IMG/VR virus record: IMGVR_UViG_2534681936_000021
Coordinates: 1-37,481 of that record
From: a virus
Lineage: Duplodnaviria > Heunggongvirae > Uroviricota > Caudoviricetes
Direction: 5' to 3' (one strand)
Length of the DNA: 37,481 nt
Both the position numbers and the translations under genes were made by a program. Position 1 is the first letter of the stretch. Each line of letters starts with the position of its first letter. Below the pieces are notes generated by a model. The model had not been told where the DNA came from. It searched no databases and saw nothing but the letters and a program-made list of their open reading frames with translations. Positions 1 through 36,485 of the stretch are shown here, in pieces.

Positions 1-1005
1 TTAATCCCCCGTGGACACTGCGTGGACACTTACGCCACCTTTCAGCGGATTAAGGGCCACCGCATCCTGCAGGTAATCCGGTGCAAAATGCGCATATGCC
101 ATTGTTTGCTGAATGGTTGCGTGACCAAGAATCTTCTGAAGCGCAATAATGTTTCCTCCGTTCATCACAAAATGGCTGGCGAACGTATGCCGCAGCACAT
201 GTGCAGCCTGGCCTTTTGGTAAATCGGGCTTAACTCTTTTCAGCGCCAGGCAGAATTCCCGGTACTTCACCTCAAACAAGCTGCCTGTTTCTCTGGTTTT
301 GATCGCCTCACAAACTGCCTGCGAAATTGGCACTGTTCTCTTCCGGCCATTTTTGGTTTCAAGAAACGTTACACGGTTATGAACTATCTGTTCACCACGA
401 AGCTTACAAGCTTCACTCCAGCGCGCCCCTGTGCTTAAACACAAAAGCGCAACACGCCAGTAGTCGCCCTCCAGTGTATCGAGCAATAGCGCCACTTCCT
501 TCTGTGACAGGAACGCCATTTCTCGTGGAGATACATAAAGAATAGAAATTCCCCTTACTGGATGTTCTGCATCCCAAAGACCTATTTTTTTCAGCACGGT
601 AAACATTCCGGATAACCGATTCATGTACCTGTTAGCAGATGACGGTTTCAATCCTTCAGCTATCTTTTGAGAACGCCACGCGATAATTTTCAGCTTATCA
701 AGATCCACAGCCTGCATATCAGCGCCAAGCTCATTAATTATGTTGCGCAGTTGTTTTCGGTCTTCTTCCGCCTTACGCCTGTGCTGGCCGTGATACATCC
801 ACCACAACTCAAGCAAATCATTTAGCGTTCGACGATCACGGTAGCCCTGTATATATTCCCGCTTTTCAGCGTTCGCCATGATGTAGCGTTCAGTGGCCAC
901 CGCTACCGATTTTTTGTCAAATACCTTACGCACGCGCTTTCCCTTGCGTCCGTTCGGCCTGATGTCCAGCAAATAACGACCATCTTCGAGCTTCTTAATC
1001 GACAT
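1..1005 (-). CDS. int: tyrosine integrase, P2 Int-like
   Basis: Translation from the ATG at 1005 begins MSIKKLEDGRY...; C-terminal catalytic region HVLRHTFASHF...GH...Y resembles P2 Int as recalled. The track ORF starts at an upstream TTG (1020). Confidence 0.9.
   Translation of the reverse strand: MSIKKLEDGRYLLDIRPNGRKGKRVRKVFDKKSVAVATERYIMANAEKREYIQGYRDRRTLNDLLELWWMYHGQHRRKAEEDRKQLRNIINELGADMQAVDLDKLKIIAWRSQKIAEGLKPSSANRYMNRLSGMFTVLKKIGLWDAEHPVRGISILYVSPREMAFLSQKEVALLLDTLEGDYWRVALLCLSTGARWSEACKLRGEQIVHNRVTFLETKNGRKRTVPISQAVCEAIKTRETGSLFEVKYREFCLALKRVKPDLPKGQAAHVLRHTFASHFVMNGGNIIALQKILGHATIQQTMAYAHFAPDYLQDAVALNPLKGGVSVHAVSTGD
10..29. repeat. candidate attL core (tandem cgtggacac units) inside the int 3' end
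   Basis: cgtggacactgcgtggacac matches 36300-36319 at 17 of 20 positions in direct orientation. Confidence 0.35.
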
Positions 1006-1101
1006 TACGAAGCCCTCCAATGAACCGCTCTACAATTTCTCCAGCCTCTTTCCAGCAATAATCAGACCAGACAAAAAGCAGGTCTAACCAGTTTTCTGGC
1101 C

Positions 1102-5084: not shown

Positions 5085-7943
5085 ATGACGGCAGAGTACA
5101 TCAGGGACTGGCAACAACCGCGCCACGCAGTGGGGCGTGAAGGAACGGGGATCCCCGTTCCTGAATCCGCGCTTTCCTCCTGGCTGGATGCCTACCGGGC
5201 AGAGAACGAGCGCCGCCAGGAAATGGCTGATGCGGCGTTCTCCGCCACGCCGCTGAGCAACCTGATTAATAAAAGCCTGGACGCACAGGAAAAACAGGAC
5301 AAAACCATCACACTGGCAGGAGACGCCAGAAAACAGGCACGCGGCGCGGTGGATGAAGCCATGGCCTCGCTGCGCCTGCTGCCGTCCTATCTGCGCGATC
5401 CGCTTATTCGCCACCTCTCCTTCCTGCGCAAAAAACAGGAAGCCGATCGCCGGAAAGGCAAAAAGAGCTGGCAGGCTGAACGCTACGCGCGCGGAACCCT
5501 GCGCAAAATATTCGAACGTCTGGACCGCACCGACCACCGCTGGCTGACACCGGGTTATCGCTCCCTTGCCGGACGCGAACGCCTGGATGATTTGCTTTAC
5601 CTGCCGCAGCTCAACCAGCACCAGATACAGACGCTGGCCACCATGACGGCGGCGATGTTCAGCAGCACCTTCGAAAAACTCTGCGATGGCTTTGGCGCGA
5701 CCGATGGCGAACTGACCATGGATGTAACGCTGAAGGCGTATCAGATGCTGGCCCGCATGGCGTTACACCTGCACGCCATGCCGCCACATTACGAAGCTCT
5801 GAACAAGAGCGATCCGGATACGGAACTGTTACCGGGCGCAATCCTTCGCCTGACCTGTGCGGAATGGTGGAAACGCAAACTGTGGCTGTTACGTTGCGAG
5901 TGGCGGGAAGAACAACTCCGCGCCGCCTGTCTGGTTTCCAAAAAAACATCGCCCTATCTGAGCCAGGACGCGTTAAGCGAGTTTCGCGCACAGCGCGAGA
6001 AAACACGCGATTTCCTGAAAAGTTTCATGCTGGAAAACGAAGACGGGTTCACGATTGATCTCGAGACAGTGTATTACGCGGGAGTAAGTAACCCGGTTCA
6101 CCGTAAGGCAGAAATGATGGCCACCATGAAGGGGCTGGAACTTCTGGCCGAAGCCCGTGGCGACAAAGCGGTGTTTCTGACCATCACCTGCCCGTCAAAA
6201 TACCACGCCACAACAGAGAACGGTCATCCGAATCCCAAATGGAACGGGGCCACCATGCGCGACTCCAGCGATTACCTGGTTAACACGTTTTTTGCGGCGG
6301 TCCGCAAGAAACTGAACCGCGACGGCCTGCGCTGGTATGGCATCCGCACAGTGGAGCCTCACCATGACGGCACCGTGCACTGGCATATGATGGTCTTTGC
6401 TCATCCGGAAGAAATCGACACCATTGTGTCCCACACCCGCGATATTGCCATTCAGGAAGATCGTCACGAGCTGGGTGATGATATTACCCCACGCTTTAAG
6501 GCGGAGTACGTCGACGGCTCAAAAGGCACGCCAACCAGCTACATCGCCACCTACATCGGAAAGAACCTGGACAGCCGCGCCGTAGATGGCATCGACCCGA
6601 AAACGGGCAAGCCACGCGTTGACCACGAAACCGGAAAATCGATGGCCGAGAGCGTGGAACGCGCCATCGGCTGGGCGCGCCTTCACCGTGTCCGCCAGTT
6701 CCAGTTCTTTGGTATCCCCTCCCGTCAGGTGTGGCGTGAACTCCGCCGCCTTGCCAGCCAGATGGCACGCAACCCGGAAGGCCCGCAACGGCTGAAGGAT
6801 GACGCAATGGATGCGGTACTCGCTGCCGCTGATGCCGGATGTTTTGCCACCTACATAGAGAAACAGGGCGGCGTACTTGTTCCACGCAAAGACTACCTGA
6901 TTCGCACCGCCTACGACCTCGCAGATGAGCTGAACGATTACGGCGAACAGAGCGTACAGATTTACGGGATCTGGTCACCACTCATCGGGGAATCCTCCCG
7001 TGTGTGCACGCATCCGGATAACTGGAAGCTGGTAAGACGCAAACCGGAAGCGGAAGACAGCGCCCGCGAAAATGGTTTTGACCTTCAGGGCGCCCCTGCC
7101 GCCCCTTGGACTCGTGGCAATAACTGTCCCCGTATACAGGAAACGGGCAACAACGGGACAGAACAGCCGGAAGAACGGCCAGCACCGTGGCCGCAGCTTC
7201 CTGACGGCGTTGACGTGAATGAATGGATGCGCTCACTGAAACGGCACGAACACCGGGCGCTGATGCGTTCGCTGCGTGACAAACAGGCAAAAAACAGCAG
7301 TGATGAAATGCAGAACTGGACACAGAGCCGCAAACAGCCACAGCCTTTGCCTGATAACCACGAGTTACTCGCTAAAGAATGGCGGGAGTCTGCTGAATCT
7401 CTCGGCCTGCATATCGGTGAACAGCAGATGCAGCACCTGTTACGGGGCGGCAGTCTGTACGTTGACGGCAGCATCATTGCACCGCAGGGATTTGAAATTG
7501 TACGCAAACCGGATACCCGCCCGGACAGCCGAATCACGCAGCTCTGGCAACGCCTGAGCCGTAATCACGGCGTAAGCAGCACGGAGATCCGCCATAACCC
7601 GGTCGCCAGCTATCTGGAACAGCTGGGGGCATCAGACCCCGAAGCCGCCACACGCCTGGAATCCACACTTCAGCAGGACCAGAACACCATGAAAACCCCC
7701 GTTACCGTGCTTTCTGACATGCTGTGCGCCATCCGTGACGCAGAGCACGCACAGAGAATCAGTGAAACCACTGAACGCGCCCGCCGCAAAGCAGACCTGC
7801 TGCGGGGTAGCCTGACCAGTGGAAACAAAAAACAGACAGAAACGGGACTCACAAATCCCGTAAATGAGCAAAAACGTGCCGCGATATATGAAGCGCGCAC
7901 AAAACAGGCAAAAGCGGGATTTAAAAATCCTGTAACCGATTAA
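5085..7943 (+). CDS. A: replication initiation endonuclease, P2 gpA family (rolling-circle HUH nickase), 952 aa
   Basis: HUH-like motif EPHHDGTVHWHMMVF and tyrosine motif YIATYIGK in the translation; position after the early genes as in P2. Confidence 0.9.
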   Translation: MTAEYIRDWQQPRHAVGREGTGIPVPESALSSWLDAYRAENERRQEMADAAFSATPLSNLINKSLDAQEKQDKTITLAGDARKQARGAVDEAMASLRLLPSYLRDPLIRHLSFLRKKQEADRRKGKKSWQAERYARGTLRKIFERLDRTDHRWLTPGYRSLAGRERLDDLLYLPQLNQHQIQTLATMTAAMFSSTFEKLCDGFGATDGELTMDVTLKAYQMLARMALHLHAMPPHYEALNKSDPDTELLPGAILRLTCAEWWKRKLWLLRCEWREEQLRAACLVSKKTSPYLSQDALSEFRAQREKTRDFLKSFMLENEDGFTIDLETVYYAGVSNPVHRKAEMMATMKGLELLAEARGDKAVFLTITCPSKYHATTENGHPNPKWNGATMRDSSDYLVNTFFAAVRKKLNRDGLRWYGIRTVEPHHDGTVHWHMMVFAHPEEIDTIVSHTRDIAIQEDRHELGDDITPRFKAEYVDGSKGTPTSYIATYIGKNLDSRAVDGIDPKTGKPRVDHETGKSMAESVERAIGWARLHRVRQFQFFGIPSRQVWRELRRLASQMARNPEGPQRLKDDAMDAVLAAADAGCFATYIEKQGGVLVPRKDYLIRTAYDLADELNDYGEQSVQIYGIWSPLIGESSRVCTHPDNWKLVRRKPEAEDSARENGFDLQGAPAAPWTRGNNCPRIQETGNNGTEQPEERPAPWPQLPDGVDVNEWMRSLKRHEHRALMRSLRDKQAKNSSDEMQNWTQSRKQPQPLPDNHELLAKEWRESAESLGLHIGEQQMQHLLRGGSLYVDGSIIAPQGFEIVRKPDTRPDSRITQLWQRLSRNHGVSSTEIRHNPVASYLEQLGASDPEAATRLESTLQQDQNTMKTPVTVLSDMLCAIRDAEHAQRISETTERARRKADLLRGSLTSGNKKQTETGLTNPVNEQKRAAIYEARTKQAKAGFKNPVTD

Positions 7944-7967
7944 TTATTCAACATAAGGAAAAGCGAC

Positions 7968-31693: not shown

Positions 31694-32802
31694 ATGACCG
31701 ACACCACCATGCAATTGCTCAGTCAGGGCACAGACCCCGTGAAAATGCCGGATTTTGATATTCTCGCGGAGGGTAAAACGCTGTCAGGCGTGGCAGAGCG
31801 CCTGATGAGCCTGTCACTGACCGACAACCGGGGATTTGAAGCGGACCAGCTCACCATCACGCTGGATGATGCGGATGGTCAGTTGCAGCTACCGCCACGG
31901 GGCGCGCGCCTGACGGTTCTCATTGGCTGGAAAGGAGAACCGCTGACAGAAAAAGGCACTTACATTGTTGATGAAATCGCTCACGAAGGACCGCCGGACA
32001 GGCTGACTGTTTCAGCCAGAAGCGCAGATTTTCGGGATGAATTTAACGTTAAACGTGAGGTGTCCTGGCATGATGTGACCGTTGAGCGTGTGGTATCCGC
32101 CATCGCTCATCGGTACGGTCTGAAACCGCAAATCAGCGAAATGCTGATGGATATCGAAATCGACCACGCCGACCAGACCGAAGAAAGCGACATGTCCTTC
32201 CTTACGCGCATGGCGGAAATGCTGGGCGCAATCACCACGGTAAAAAGCGGCAATCTGTTATTCATCATGCCTGGTGGTGGCGTGAACGCACAGGGCCAGC
32301 CGTTGCCCTCGTTCGCCATTACACGCAGCAGTGGCGATCGCCATCAGTTCCGCATTGCTGACCGCGAGGCGTATACGGGTGTACGCGCCTACTGGCTTGA
32401 TCTTAATTACGGGAAAAAGAAAAAGTCAGCGTGAAACGCCGCAAACCGCCAAAACCCAAAAAGGAGAAAAGCAGCAGCCGTGAAGGTGATTATATGGAAG
32501 GCGCGGAAGGCAATGTGTTTGTGTTACGCAAGACTTATCAGAACGAGCAGGCAGCAAGACGCGCAGCGGCGGCAAAGTGGCAGCAGCTACAACGCGGAGC
32601 CGCATCATTCTCCATCATGCTGGCACGCGGACGCGCAGAACTCTACCCCGAAATGCATGGCACGGTAACAGGCTTTAAAAGCGAGATTGATAATCAGGAC
32701 TGGATTATTGCAAAAGCCGAGCACACCATTGATAACAGCGGCTTTACCACACAGCTTGAGCTTGAGGCAAAAATCCCGGAATGGATAGCAGAAACAGAGT
32801 GA
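31694..32802 (+). pseudogene. D: late control / tail protein gpD-like, split by a single-base frameshift in the gggaaaaagaaaaag run (about 32411-32430)
   Basis: Track ORFs ending at 32434 and starting at 32431 together give a gpD-like protein (...SWHDVT..., ...GDRHQF..., ...QDWIIAKAEH...SGFTTQLELE...). Confidence 0.75.
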
Positions 32803-32870
32803 GCAACTTAGACATATTAGCTCAGACTTAAACTGGCAAGTTTACAGTATAGAATTAAACATAAACGACG

Positions 32871-32899
32871 GTCCGCTCCGTGTCAGAAGCGGACTTTGT
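32871..32899. terminator. hairpin between convergent D and the 340-aa gene (gtccgct / agcggac followed by TTTGTC)
   Basis: 7-bp stem flanked by A-rich and T-rich sequence. Confidence 0.45.
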
Positions 32900-32922
32900 C
32901 ATCCCTATGTAAGGTTGATTGC

Positions 32923-33945
32923 TTAATACGCATTTAATTTAAATTTGTATTTGCCTTCTATGTAATGGATAAATTCAATTATGCTTTTTTCTATCGCATC
33001 TAATATATGAATATATCCATCCCGATTTAAGGTCCTATCCAACTCAAAGTGATGAACTATCCCATGTCTATATTGTATGATTTCAGAAATTCGATTCTCA
33101 AGAAAATCAACTGATTTTCCAATTCTTTTTTTCTTATAAAGAATCGCTCTCACATCTATATCCAGCCACTCTTTATATGCTTTGTTTAGGTGGGTTAAGT
33201 TTTGAAAAGTGTAATTTCTTGCAATAACACTTTCTATTGAAATATTTCCTTTCTCTATCTCAAGCAGAATATCAAAATCAACTTTTTGCTTATACGATGT
33301 TCTTTTTGCTATTGCGAAAGGATCGTACTTTATAAGTATTTGAAAAGCTCTAGAGAAAAAATATTCAAACATAGCAACCGCAAAAGGTACTAATCCATTA
33401 TATATAACTCTACTGGGATCCATACATTGCATGTAATCAAAGTATTCGGATAAGCCGCCATCTTCCGGTAGGTTTAATTTAATAGAAGGTTCAGGTAAGG
33501 CATGTTTAACAGCGGAAATCTCATGATGGACATGATTAAATATTGAAGAAATGCCACGACTGATCGGACTACTAGAATCCTTCCATAGAGGAGCGTACCT
33601 ATTTTTCCCATAATCACCTATAAGTGTTCCACCAAAAAGACTCCGTGCGCCTTTTAGAACATCATTAAGCATTTTTACATCATGCCAACTAGCGCTATAT
33701 AAATTACGCACATGCAATGCCCATTTATTACCAGATATGTGTAGTTCGTCATTTGAAACAGGATATATATCAGCCGAAACTCCATCTGTAGATTTGAAGT
33801 CCGTATCATCAAACCAAGAGTAATTCAACGTTCCTTGGGGCCATTCCCACAAATGTTTACACCTTTTAAAACCTAAATTTTCAAGGTAATTTTTAAGTTC
33901 GTTTCTAGTTGCTTTTTTAGGGTACAGCGTTATATCTCTTCCCAT
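32923..33945 (-). CDS. hypothetical 340-aa protein in an AT-rich insertion; C-terminal Rx4HH motif (candidate HEPN-like abortive-infection protein)
   Basis: Long clean ORF in markedly AT-rich DNA between D and ogr; motif YRHGIVHHFE near the C-terminus. Confidence 0.6.
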   Translation of the reverse strand: MGRDITLYPKKATRNELKNYLENLGFKRCKHLWEWPQGTLNYSWFDDTDFKSTDGVSADIYPVSNDELHISGNKWALHVRNLYSASWHDVKMLNDVLKGARSLFGGTLIGDYGKNRYAPLWKDSSSPISRGISSIFNHVHHEISAVKHALPEPSIKLNLPEDGGLSEYFDYMQCMDPSRVIYNGLVPFAVAMFEYFFSRAFQILIKYDPFAIAKRTSYKQKVDFDILLEIEKGNISIESVIARNYTFQNLTHLNKAYKEWLDIDVRAILYKKKRIGKSVDFLENRISEIIQYRHGIVHHFELDRTLNRDGYIHILDAIEKSIIEFIHYIEGKYKFKLNAY

Positions 33946-34136
33946 GCTTTATTCACCTGATATACAATATTTTAAATTTTAACTATTATGAACGTATGAA
34001 TTTTCACATTGGATGTATGGAAGTTCAACAACTATTGAAAGTTCAATTTTCACTCTTCGCACAGAGCGAGCTGTTAGTTGGAATTAGGGATCGTACAATC
34101 TAGAATAGCGGCAACACCACGTTAAGGGAGGTCGCT

Positions 34137-34397
34137 ATGTTCCGTTGTCCGCTTTGTGGCGCATCTGCCCGTATCCGCACAAGTCGTCCGGAAAATGATT
34201 CAAACACCGTGCGGCAAAAGTATTACCAGTGTAACAATCTGGAATGCGGCGTATGCTTCTCAACACTGGAAGCTTTCCATAAATTCACATCGAAACACGC
34301 CTCCGGCGTTCACTCTTCAGAAGGTATCCCGTGGCATGAGCTACCAGCTTCACACAGGGGAAACAATCAGATGAGTTTGCCTTTACCTCAGAATTAA
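34137..34397 (+). CDS. ogr: Ogr/Delta-family zinc-finger late transcription activator
   Basis: MFRCPLCGA...CNNLEC zinc-finger pattern typical of P2 Ogr; RBS agggagg upstream. Confidence 0.8.
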   Translation: MFRCPLCGASARIRTSRPENDSNTVRQKYYQCNNLECGVCFSTLEAFHKFTSKHASGVHSSEGIPWHELPASHRGNNQMSLPLPQN

Positions 34398-34588
34398 CAA
34401 GCAGAATTGCCGGAGTAACAAAAAAGCGATAGATTACGCGCGGGTGCCTTTCGGCTGATGGTCGGAGGGAATACCCGAAGGCCAGATGTGGAAAGGCCCC
34501 GGAAAACACTTTTGTTTAACCGAGGCCCTAACCGTCTACCCTAAGCAAGTGAAAGGTTAGCGCCTCTCCGGAAAAGGAGCAAGTGCTA

Positions 34589-34729
34589 TGTCGCAAAAAT
34601 CGCTTACAGCCATCACGTTCTGCGTGACGGTAATCCTCATCATCTGGATGTTGCACGGTTCGCTGTGCGAAATACGGATGAGTTTCTGGGGAGCGGAGTT
34701 TGCGGCGTTCTTACAGTGTAAGCAGTAAG
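34589..34729 (+). CDS. Hok/Gef-family type I toxin (46 aa), below the ORF-track size cutoff
   Basis: MSQKSLTAITFCVTVILIIWMLHGSLCEIR...AEFAAFL: transmembrane helix followed by the Hok-like SLCEIR and E(F/V)AAF motifs; RBS aaggag 8 nt upstream. Confidence 0.6.
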
Positions 34730-34738
34730 GAAACCGCG

Positions 34739-34760
34739 ACGGGGGAGTAATCCCCCGTCA
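34739..34760 (+). other. stable 9-bp hairpin just 3' of the hok-like ORF (gacggggga-gtaa-tcccccgtc)
   Basis: Perfect inverted repeat 10 nt after the stop; consistent with a hok mRNA 3' fold. Confidence 0.5.
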
Positions 34761-34989
34761 ATCGGTTGCCAGGGTAAGGTCGATAAGGCACCCTATCTCA
34801 CGGCTCTAAATGCAAAAATTCCATGAAACTGTGGGATTTTTGCATCACTACTGATACAGATCTGACCTTCTTTATGTCTCACTCTATACCAGCTAATCAA
34901 TTGACACTTATCAATAAAAAAAAATCTGATAAAATCAAAATGTTTTGTAACAAATATCAACTCGTATTGATCCAAAGGAGGCGGATTAC

Positions 34990-35322
34990 ATGGCATTAAT
35001 CAAATGTCCTGAATGCCAGAAAGAGGTGAGCGATTCAGCATTGTATTGCCCTGCTTGCGGTAAACAAATAAAAAAACTTAAGCGTTCATTTTTTGGAAAG
35101 CTCATTAAGTGGATTTTTATATTATTTAATATTTTTATGATCTATACGCTTTTAGTTGGACTGGGAGGCACTAGTGAAATAATAAATAATGCTACATCCG
35201 ATGCCGAAAAAGCCGGTGCAGTTATTGGTACAGGCTTAGGTTTAATTACCATTGGAAGTTTATGGGTTATTGGCGATATCATTATCGGAATTTTAGTGTT
35301 TCTTACTAAACCAAAAGGATAA
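34990..35322 (+). CDS. zinc-ribbon membrane protein (110 aa)
   Basis: N-terminal CPEC...CPAC zinc ribbon followed by two hydrophobic helices; AT-rich context. Confidence 0.5.
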   Translation: MALIKCPECQKEVSDSALYCPACGKQIKKLKRSFFGKLIKWIFILFNIFMIYTLLVGLGGTSEIINNATSDAEKAGAVIGTGLGLITIGSLWVIGDIIIGILVFLTKPKG

Positions 35323-35326
35323 CAAA

Positions 35327-36218
35327 ATGAAAAATATAATTTTTCTATAGGTGCATCATTTATATCAATTGGTGTACTGCCTGTTCACGCAGCAACTGAA
35401 CATAATAACTTCAATGCAGTACTCCAGTGCCGAGCAATAGAAAATAATAAAGACAGACTTTCTTGTTACGATAAGTCAATACAACCGACTCGAACGAAAG
35501 TTGCTGAAAAATTCGAAAGCAGAGATCAATGCCCTGATGAGAAAGATGATGACAGACGTTTATCTTGTTATGATCGTTTTTTTCTCCAACATTTACTCCA
35601 TCTGTAAACTCAAAATCTAAAACGGAAAAGCCAGTAACAACAGAGGCTCAGCAACCAAATCTTTCTGAGATATCTAAATGCCGAGCAGAAAATGATAAAG
35701 AAGCCAGACTAAACTGCTACGATAAACTATTCCCACAGGATAAAGCTGTTCAAGCTGAATCAAAATTAGAGAAAGCCACAGATGTAGGAAAATGGCACAC
35801 ATCCATTACTACATCGCCAATTGATGATTCGAAAAATGTAATTTTATCGTTAGAAAGTGATGATTATATCAGAACTCCATTTGGAGAAGCGGTTACTCCT
35901 ACTCTGTTTATAGCTTGCCGAGAAAAGAAAACCGAAGTATTTCTTGGTTGGGATGTATATTTAGGCCTTGAACAAACCAGCATGCTTTATCGTCTTGATA
36001 AACAGAAAGCAGTTGAGCGAAACTGGCTAGTATCTACAGATACAAAGGCTGTTTTTTATAAAGGTAATGACATTGATTTCATCCGAAAACTAGCCAACTC
36101 AAACAAAATGTATACAAAAATAACTCCTTATAATGAGAGCCCTGTAAGTGCAACTTTCAATTTAAACGGCCTGTCAAACGCGCTAAAACCACTTCAAGCT
36201 GCTTGTAACTGGAAATAG
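35327..36218 (+). pseudogene. frameshifted gene for a secreted protein with three Cys-x9-10-Cys-Tyr-Asp repeats
   Basis: Signal-peptide-like start (MKNIIF...); frame breaks at T-runs near 35340 and 35577-35583; an ATG-less open frame continues to 36218. Confidence 0.45.
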
Positions 36219-36245
36219 CATAAATCATGTGGCTTAGCCACAATC

Positions 36246-36289
36246 ACAGATAACACAAAGCCCGTGGAAACGGGCTTTGTGTTATCTGT
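36246..36289. other. 19-bp perfect inverted repeat with 6-nt loop (acagataacacaaagcccg / cgggctttgtgttatctgt)
   Basis: Seen directly; lies between the upstream pseudogene and the candidate attR. Confidence 0.55.
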
Positions 36290-36299
36290 AACTCGAAAA

Positions 36300-36319
36300 T
36301 GTGGTCACTACGTGGACAC
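36300..36319. repeat. candidate attR core (tgtggtcactacgtggacac)
   Basis: 17 of 20 identity in direct orientation with 10-29 at the int end. Confidence 0.35.
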
Positions 36320-36485
36320 GTGCTGATATAAATCCTTTTATATCAATAAATTAAATCATCATTTTTTTCATCAACAAGGATTTTCACGTTTGTGTTACCT
36401 GTATGAGACGAGAGTTAACCGGACAAGTGTGCCATAATCTCGCGGCCAGGCATACTTGCGAAGATTTCAGGTATAAGGATACGTA

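Follow-up and report, generated by a model that had tools for sequence, protein, structure and literature searches.

HepS, carried by the Gifsy-1 prophage of Salmonella, combines in one HEPN protein the sensing of an infection and the execution of abortive infection (PMC13043305), with the siphovirus tail tip as its trigger and tRNA anticodon loops as its target (PMC13043305; PDB 9oik). [quoted passage not shown] The bacterial Ribo L-PSP-HEPN family, distantly related to AbiD/AbiF, is predicted to attack mRNA, and the proteins from which it takes its name carry a fused endoRNase L-PSP domain or are encoded together with ParB in one operon (Anantharaman et al. 2013, PMC3710099). P2-like prophages carry cargo genes in variable slots between core genes, as at the hotspots old/tin (gpA-Q) and Z/fun (Rousset et al. 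2022, PMC9122126; PMC13586616; iLund4u 10.1101/2024.10.15.618418), and the sites named in the searched text of the hotspot papers are gpA-Q (old/tin), Z/fun or downstream of gpL, int-att and int-primase.

Here we describe a gene in a P2-like (Peduoviridae) prophage of Escherichia coli, contained in a window of 37,481 nucleotides (the whole stretch of DNA that was analysed), whose 340 aa product, the cargo protein, has a predicted C-terminal HEPN domain. By analogy, HepS is the best precedent for a lone HEPN protein in defence, although no sequence similarity between the two was detectable, HepS is 218 residues long without a counterpart of the 125-residue N-terminal domain of the cargo protein, and its host element is a lambdoid prophage; the trigger and target of HepS cannot be carried over to the cargo protein. 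Unlike HepT, the cargo protein is encoded without an adjacent MNT nucleotidyltransferase antitoxin, and it is twice the length of HepT with an extra N-terminal domain. It lacks an Abi_2 match (E up to 10, with PF18735 the only family returned) and, unlike AbiA, has no reverse-transcriptase domain. Neither the cargo protein (E up to 10) nor four of its distant relatives matched any of the 5,027 models of PADLOC-DB 2.0; a search of NCBIfam gave no match for the protein and PHROGs gave nothing useful. On these sequence comparisons, the cargo protein is not HepT/MntA, AbiD/F or a PADLOC-listed system, and literature searches found no published characterisation of the protein or its family.

An AT-rich single-gene cassette lies between D and ogr

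The prophage begins with an integrase gene (window positions 1-1020), followed by replication and head genes and a FI-FII-E-T-U tail block that is inverted, with D and ogr at the right end. A hok/sok-type addiction locus was seen at the same end of the prophage. The D reading frame is split, and the idea that this marks a dead prophage was rejected, as similar 1-nt homopolymer deletions occur elsewhere in the window.

By aligning the window with a sister prophage in which the junction is empty (L016, 42 nt from the D stop to the ogr ATG), the limits of an insert of 1,292 bp were defined (Table 1). The first-pass annotation had described an AT-rich segment with one minus-strand gene, placed between D and ogr and regarded as horizontally acquired; this held up in alignment, with the length corrected from 1.1 kb to about 1.29 kb, as did the gene itself (32923..33945), which encodes 340 aa with the sequence YRHGIVHH at aa 292-299. 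The cassette has a GC content of 34.2% (33.7% in the cargo gene), compared to 54.5% in D and 53.3% across positions 1-32802 of the prophage, and GC3 is 26% in the cargo gene and 59.5% in the tail sheath gene. The cassette thus fits a phage moron, being an insert between conserved phage genes that is missing in close relatives and deviates in composition.

Table 1. Features of the D-ogr junction and its cassette, in window coordinates.
Feature	Position	Strand	Remarks
Flanking P2 gene D (tail)	31694..32802	+	Frame split at ~32419, where an A-run lacks 1 nt
Left edge repeat CAACTTAGA	32804..32812	+	End of the D-ogr spacer as in empty sites
Inserted AT-rich cassette, 1,292 bp, ~34% GC	32813..34104	.	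Alignment with empty site L016 and three other cargo variants; GC values
GC-rich hairpin, a likely terminator, where the stops of D and the cargo gene converge	32871..32894	.	Weak T-tails, both strands
Cargo gene, ATG start, 340 aa; predicted N-terminal alpha/beta domain, linker helix and C-terminal HEPN domain	32923..33945	-	
Predicted HEPN domain (PF18735 type), codons 177-335	32941..33417	-	
R-x4-H motif RHGIVH, codons 293-298	33052..33069	-	R293, H298 invariant; H294 92%
Long helix and variable linker, codons 126-176	33418..33570	-	Least conserved part
Conserved alpha/beta domain, codons 1-125	33571..33945	-	G55, D89 invariant; S86, N94, F104-G105-G106, G113 near-invariant
Shine-Dalgarno AGGTG, 8 nt 5' of the ATG	33954..33958	-	Read from sequence
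Putative own promoter: -35 TTGAAC (34028..34023), 17-nt spacer, extended -10 TGtGAAAAT (34008..34000)	34000..34028	-	
Right edge repeat CAATCTAGA	34096..34104	+	Other cargo variants share CAAyCTAGA-like sequence
Flanking ogr (Ogr/Delta zinc-finger late activator)	34137..34397	+	

The cassette may carry its own expression signals. The hairpin downstream of the cargo gene has 9 pairs and, as RNA, a folding energy of -24.8 kcal/mol (z = -3.9). The segment had been described as flanked by a bidirectional terminator: the hairpin does lie between the two convergent stops, but it is found on one side of the gene only, with T-tails that are weak whichever way it is read. Upstream of the gene, a promoter-like block matches the consensus at 8 of 12 hexamer positions by our own count, which lies under the cut-off of the promoter scan, where it went unreported. 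The same block is kept, amid unrelated surroundings, upstream of the homologues in Hafnia, Mixta and Pantoea, and from this conservation we regard it as a putative promoter of the cargo gene. Two 11-nt repeats upstream of the gene overlap the block.

The D-ogr junction is a low-occupancy slot for single genes

The cargo gene was found in 65 of 5,426 complete E. coli genomes (1.2%), as a single chromosomal copy in each and always at the D-ogr junction, whereas 720 E. coli genomes have the junction uninterrupted. The gene is therefore not a conserved part of the late module of this phage lineage, and its reading as acquired cargo is strengthened by the different genes that occupy the slot elsewhere: a DUF2971 protein, an alpha/beta hydrolase and a 221-aa hypothetical protein, each alone at the junction of other sister prophages. 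Short edge sequences are common to the cassette and these other cargo variants. The DUF2971 gene matches the PADLOC candidate family PDC-S31 (5e-27), and Aristaios, a DUF2971 protein, has been validated in Lactococcus as a single-gene system of abortive infection (PMC11381338). Four carriers that were inspected, IHE3034 among them, have the prophage adjoining flk. The record 'Escherichia phage 500465-2' (Peduoviridae, Gemsvirus), itself a predicted prophage in which the host gene flk is still included, has a copy of the gene with 100% identity.

The D-ogr junction is thus a low-occupancy cargo slot for single genes. Like the P2 hotspots old/tin and Z/fun, it carries interchangeable defence-type cargo of foreign composition between core genes; unlike them, it is mostly empty and takes single genes, at a different position. 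The site had been proposed to lie outside the classical P2 cargo positions, and this stands in so far as neither 'ogr' nor 'gpD' appears in the main text of the P2 hotspot papers searched, but the region is not wholly new. Within the literature searched, the main texts of these papers included, the single-gene slot and its cargo are undescribed.

The C-terminal domain of the cargo protein is of predicted HEPN type

The first-pass annotation had taken a C-terminal Rx4-6H pattern as the signature of a HEPN RNase. As a pattern this is not beyond chance, since matches start at two arginines (R293 and R308) where ~2.1 are expected from composition; what stands is conservation, with R293 and H298 invariant and H294 92% conserved in an alignment of 52 diverse relatives reaching down to ~20% identity. 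Because the pair is invariant across the family, with the polar H294 following the arginine, we regard R293/H298 as a meaningful candidate for the catalytic HEPN motif. The other invariant residues of this alignment are G55, D89, E194 and F247, and S86, N94, F104, G105, G106, G113, N183, Q248 and H294 are near-invariant.

In searches of Pfam, the cargo protein aligned to PF18735 (HEPN_RiboL-PSP) at aa 181-329 with the R-x4-H kept, at E = 1.2e-4 and 22.5 bits against a gathering threshold of 28.4. The same model matched 35 of the 52 diverse relatives (E up to 0.01; best 4.3e-10), and a precomputed PF18735 match exists for most homologues of 65-87% identity. Unlike the eponymous Ribo L-PSP-HEPN proteins, neither the cargo protein nor the 52 relatives gave a Pfam match to L-PSP or ParB, and the gene has no conserved neighbour. 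The cargo protein therefore appears to be a different architecture on the PF18735 HEPN clade and not a typical member of it, its own match lying under the gathering threshold.

Structure prediction pointed in the same direction. AlphaFold with a broad alignment gave a model of high confidence (pLDDT 95.6, pTM 0.89) in three parts (aa 1-125, 126-176 and 177-335), the last of which is predicted to form an all-alpha helical bundle of HEPN type, as the first-pass annotation would have it; this model superseded an earlier one made from close homologues only, which was poor around the motif (pLDDT 77.7). HepT toxins were among the best structural matches of the model. No significant match came from profile searches of PDB sequences; the only sequence that the family profile did match, at E = 1.1, was a HepN toxin, with the alignment falling exactly on the motif. 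Membership of the C-terminal domain in the HEPN superfamily is supported by the predicted fold and the conserved R-x4-H.

The N-terminal domain gave no match to L-PSP or to any other Pfam family (hmmscan, E up to 10), and its predicted structure matched only generic alpha/beta folds (the ZipA C-terminal domain, KA1, Med20, SirA, CdiI and, in part, CYTH). Among close relatives its mean identity is 77%, compared to 71% for the HEPN domain.

Relatives occur in many phyla, in part beside established defence systems

The family comprises 295 clusters at 90% identity and 284 at 50%. Full-length members are ~330-370 aa long, and the architecture of the 340-aa protein is retained in the 284 clusters at 50% identity. 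By close-alignment search, relatives with 56-88% identity were found in Bacteroidota, Desulfobacterota, Gemmatimonadota, Patescibacteria, Cyanobacteria, Spirochaetia and other groups, and identity this high across so many phyla argues for frequent horizontal transfer under strong purifying selection. The elements that carry relatives include a Pantoea prophage of lambdoid type, a DUF927 island of Pseudomonas and a plasmid-like contig with MobA and TraG.

No family of neighbouring genes recurred in more than four of 36 loci, and the family found in those four was IS transposases. The earlier view of a stand-alone gene was borne out by this result, which argues that the gene works without a dedicated partner.

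Established defence systems were adjacent to or surrounded the family member in 5 of the 15 loci whose nearest large neighbours (one to four per locus) were scanned, which is a raw count. These were Hachiman HamB (L041, E = 0), DISARM DrmD (L035, 1e-199), a CBASS cyclase with a 2TM effector (L039, 1e-105 and 4e-62), Thoeris ThsB (L033, 7e-74) and a type I restriction-modification operon, in which the family member is embedded between HsdM and HsdS (L043). Weaker matches were to PD-T7-4 (L049) and to the PADLOC candidate families PDC-S23 (L024), PDC-M58A (L038) and PDC-M36A (L040). A marginal RTasHel match on a UvrD-type helicase (L007, 2e-6) was disregarded. Another five of the 15 loci (L021, L026, L036, L037 and L045) had only housekeeping genes or genes of unknown function as neighbours. 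The idea of a role in defence gains support from the five loci beside established systems, as a raw count.

Discussion

We consider it probable, though well short of certain, that the cargo protein acts on its own in abortive-infection-type defence, as a self-inhibited HEPN RNase encoded by a self-contained prophage moron. A foreign gene, with a promoter-like block and a hairpin of its own, was inserted at the D-ogr slot. For the HEPN domain of its product we predict metal-independent endoribonuclease activity through R293/H298, probably in a dimer with a composite active site, as in other HEPN RNases. Because toxicity would be expected of a lone constitutive RNase, the protein is presumably inactive in uninfected lysogens; the N-terminal alpha/beta domain would act as both autoinhibitor and sensor, silencing the nuclease and switching it on at an infection cue. 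The activated enzyme may then cut host or phage RNA (tRNA, mRNA or rRNA) so that the infection is aborted, and abortive infection would protect the lysogen population and hence the prophage, giving the lysogen a phage-resistance phenotype.

The explanation that comes closest to this one, and which we think unlikely, is that of a selfish toxin, inhibited in cis, which stabilises its mobile element by post-segregational killing or by the exclusion of rivals. HEPN domains are common among the toxins of toxin-antitoxin systems (PMC3710099), and such a role would suit the HepT toxins among the structural matches, the occurrence of the gene on prophages, a plasmid and an integrative island and beside IS elements, and the hok/sok-type locus at the same end of this prophage. 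However, neighbour clustering, an Rfam scan and repeat searches found no antitoxin gene, conserved small ORF or RNA alongside the gene, and a single stable polypeptide offers no obvious mechanism of differential decay. Many copies moreover lie in chromosomal defence islands, with Hachiman, CBASS, Thoeris or restriction-modification systems, and not on replicons needing stabilisation, and no copy of the gene was found in the plasmids of PLSDB.

We give less credence still to an RNase that serves the phage itself, degrading host transcripts or the RNAs of rival elements during the lytic cycle, or countering host defence. The gene does lie inside a prophage beside late genes, and phages are known to encode RNases and to keep anti-defence genes in variable slots, but it runs against the direction of D and ogr, and the sigma-70-like block accompanies it into non-phage contexts. 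Over 90% of sister prophages are without the gene, and most relatives reside in bacterial chromosomes, in the vicinity of defence systems and away from phage genes. A Foldseek search of the viral structures in BFVD gave no significant match, and the sole phage record found to carry the gene is the predicted prophage described above.

It is very improbable that the protein is a non-catalytic or housekeeping HEPN protein with no part in conflict, such as an MtlR-like regulator that binds RNA or a ligand, or an RNA-processing factor: the residues expected to be catalytic (R and H) are invariant, the gene is sporadic in E. coli, at the 1.2% of genomes given above, and its AT-rich foreign composition and its contexts in mobile elements and defence islands are a misfit for such a role. 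Least credible of all is that the gene now does nothing in E. coli, as a silent or decaying passenger, for although AT-rich foreign DNA is often silenced in this species and the copy in ETEC1706 is frameshifted (one of the four carriers inspected), the gene is otherwise intact, at no less than 95% identity in all 65 carriers and at least 99% in 60 of them, and the many residues invariant across 30 relatives from distant taxa, with 64-86% identity, argue for purifying selection.

Beyond the reading of the cargo protein as a self-inhibited defence RNase, we propose tentatively, and with distinctly less assurance, that it is the founding example of an unnamed and widespread single-protein immune system in which a new and highly conserved alpha/beta sensor is joined to a PF18735-type HEPN RNase, the D-ogr junction being a dedicated slot for single defence genes that are exchanged by way of the conserved cassette edges. 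As the N-terminal domain is conserved across phyla, the sensor may monitor a universal component of the cell or a nucleic-acid signal and not a phage-specific protein. Such conservation would be unusual for a sensor of fast-evolving phage proteins, and we speculate that a conserved cellular or nucleic-acid ligand fits better.

No new principle is involved, as stand-alone HEPN abortive-infection proteins and defence morons of prophages are well established. The cassette is a good candidate for a single-gene defence, well-founded and easily testable. If it is confirmed, HEPN nucleases would gain a new regulatory or sensor module in the N-terminal domain, whose conservation suggests a trigger unlike the phage-protein sensing of HepS, and the D-ogr junction would be a further place in which to mine P2-like prophages for single-gene defence cargo. 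The family as a whole would then represent a compact single-gene HEPN defence system, present in many phyla and missed by PADLOC 2.0 and NCBIfam.

Alternative single-gene cargos occupy the D-ogr junction

Sister prophages related to that of the window were found to carry other single-gene cargos between the tail gene D and ogr, the junction that holds the AT-rich cassette in the window (three loci, L011, L012 and L013; see table), the products being a DUF2971 protein, an alpha/beta hydrolase and a 221-aa hypothetical protein. The DUF2971 cargo matched the PADLOC model PDC-S31 (5e-27) and has the same domain as Aristaios, a validated single-gene Abi system (PMC11381338). Short edge sequences were common to the D-ogr cassettes: the left edge resembles ATTAGCTCAGAC and the right edge has the form GTTGGA...ACAAyCTAGA. 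This sharing hints that cassettes of this slot are exchanged through recombination at conserved borders.

The split of gene D and assembly quality

Relative to an intact sister copy, D itself lacks one nucleotide of an A-run (32415-32424) in the window, which splits it into two ORFs of 290 aa and 123 aa, and the TagO-like host gene of the window has 1-nt deletions in two T-runs (35339 and 35576) relative to the carrier strain IHE3034. The three undercalled homopolymers point to sequencing errors in the assembly from which the window derives, and not to a prophage that is dead. In several genomes (L011-L014 and L053-L055, RefSeq) PGAP annotated D as a 261-267-aa "VgrG/Pvc8 family" CDS with a tiny antisense pseudogene, whereas the same gene is annotated at its full length of 369 aa in L016, the sister prophage with an empty junction; this looks like annotation inconsistency, not biology.

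Homologues of the cargo gene in other taxa

A cargo protein 100% identical to that of the window was found on a 4.2-kb contig (DEQA01000038.1) of the MAG "Planococcaceae bacterium UBA3378", the first 200 nt of which match the window exactly; the contig is most likely Enterobacterales contamination of the MAG bin and not a Firmicutes homologue. The homologue of Aeromonas dhakensis (L002-L005) is preceded by an alpha/beta hydrolase gene and followed after 40 nt, on the same strand, by a gene (7064-7957) whose 297-aa product has a faint CBS match, a pairing that did not recur in other taxa. In Spirochaetia bacterium MS502-68 (L043, 1698-7233) a family member of 56% identity is flanked by HsdM and HsdS in a type I restriction-modification operon that additionally holds an unannotated 572-aa protein, an arrangement that brings to mind the cases, described by Anantharaman et al. 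(PMC3710099), of HEPN genes lying within R-M operons.

The prophage end and the adjoining host DNA

Coordinates of D-ogr cargos and of features at and beyond the prophage end
Feature	Sequence	Coordinates	Strand	Remarks
Alternative D-ogr cargo	L011	1726-2511
Alternative D-ogr cargo	L012	1730-2488
Alternative D-ogr cargo	L013	1798-2463
sok (Rfam RF01794)	window	34442-34601		E = 4e-10; 51.9 bits, under the gathering score of 59
Hok/Gef CDS	window	34588-34728	+
Zinc-ribbon membrane protein	window	34990-35322		within AT-rich stretch
TagO/VasI-like protein	window			within AT-rich stretch

Immediately 3' of ogr, at the end of the prophage, is a hok/sok-type type I toxin-antitoxin locus (34442-34728), which was present in every sister prophage inspected. 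A second AT-rich stretch (34750-36450, ~37% GC) is located outside the prophage, between hok and flk. One carrier of the cargo gene, ETEC1706, instead has a TM2-domain gene at this place, and the attachment site is therefore variable on its host side too.
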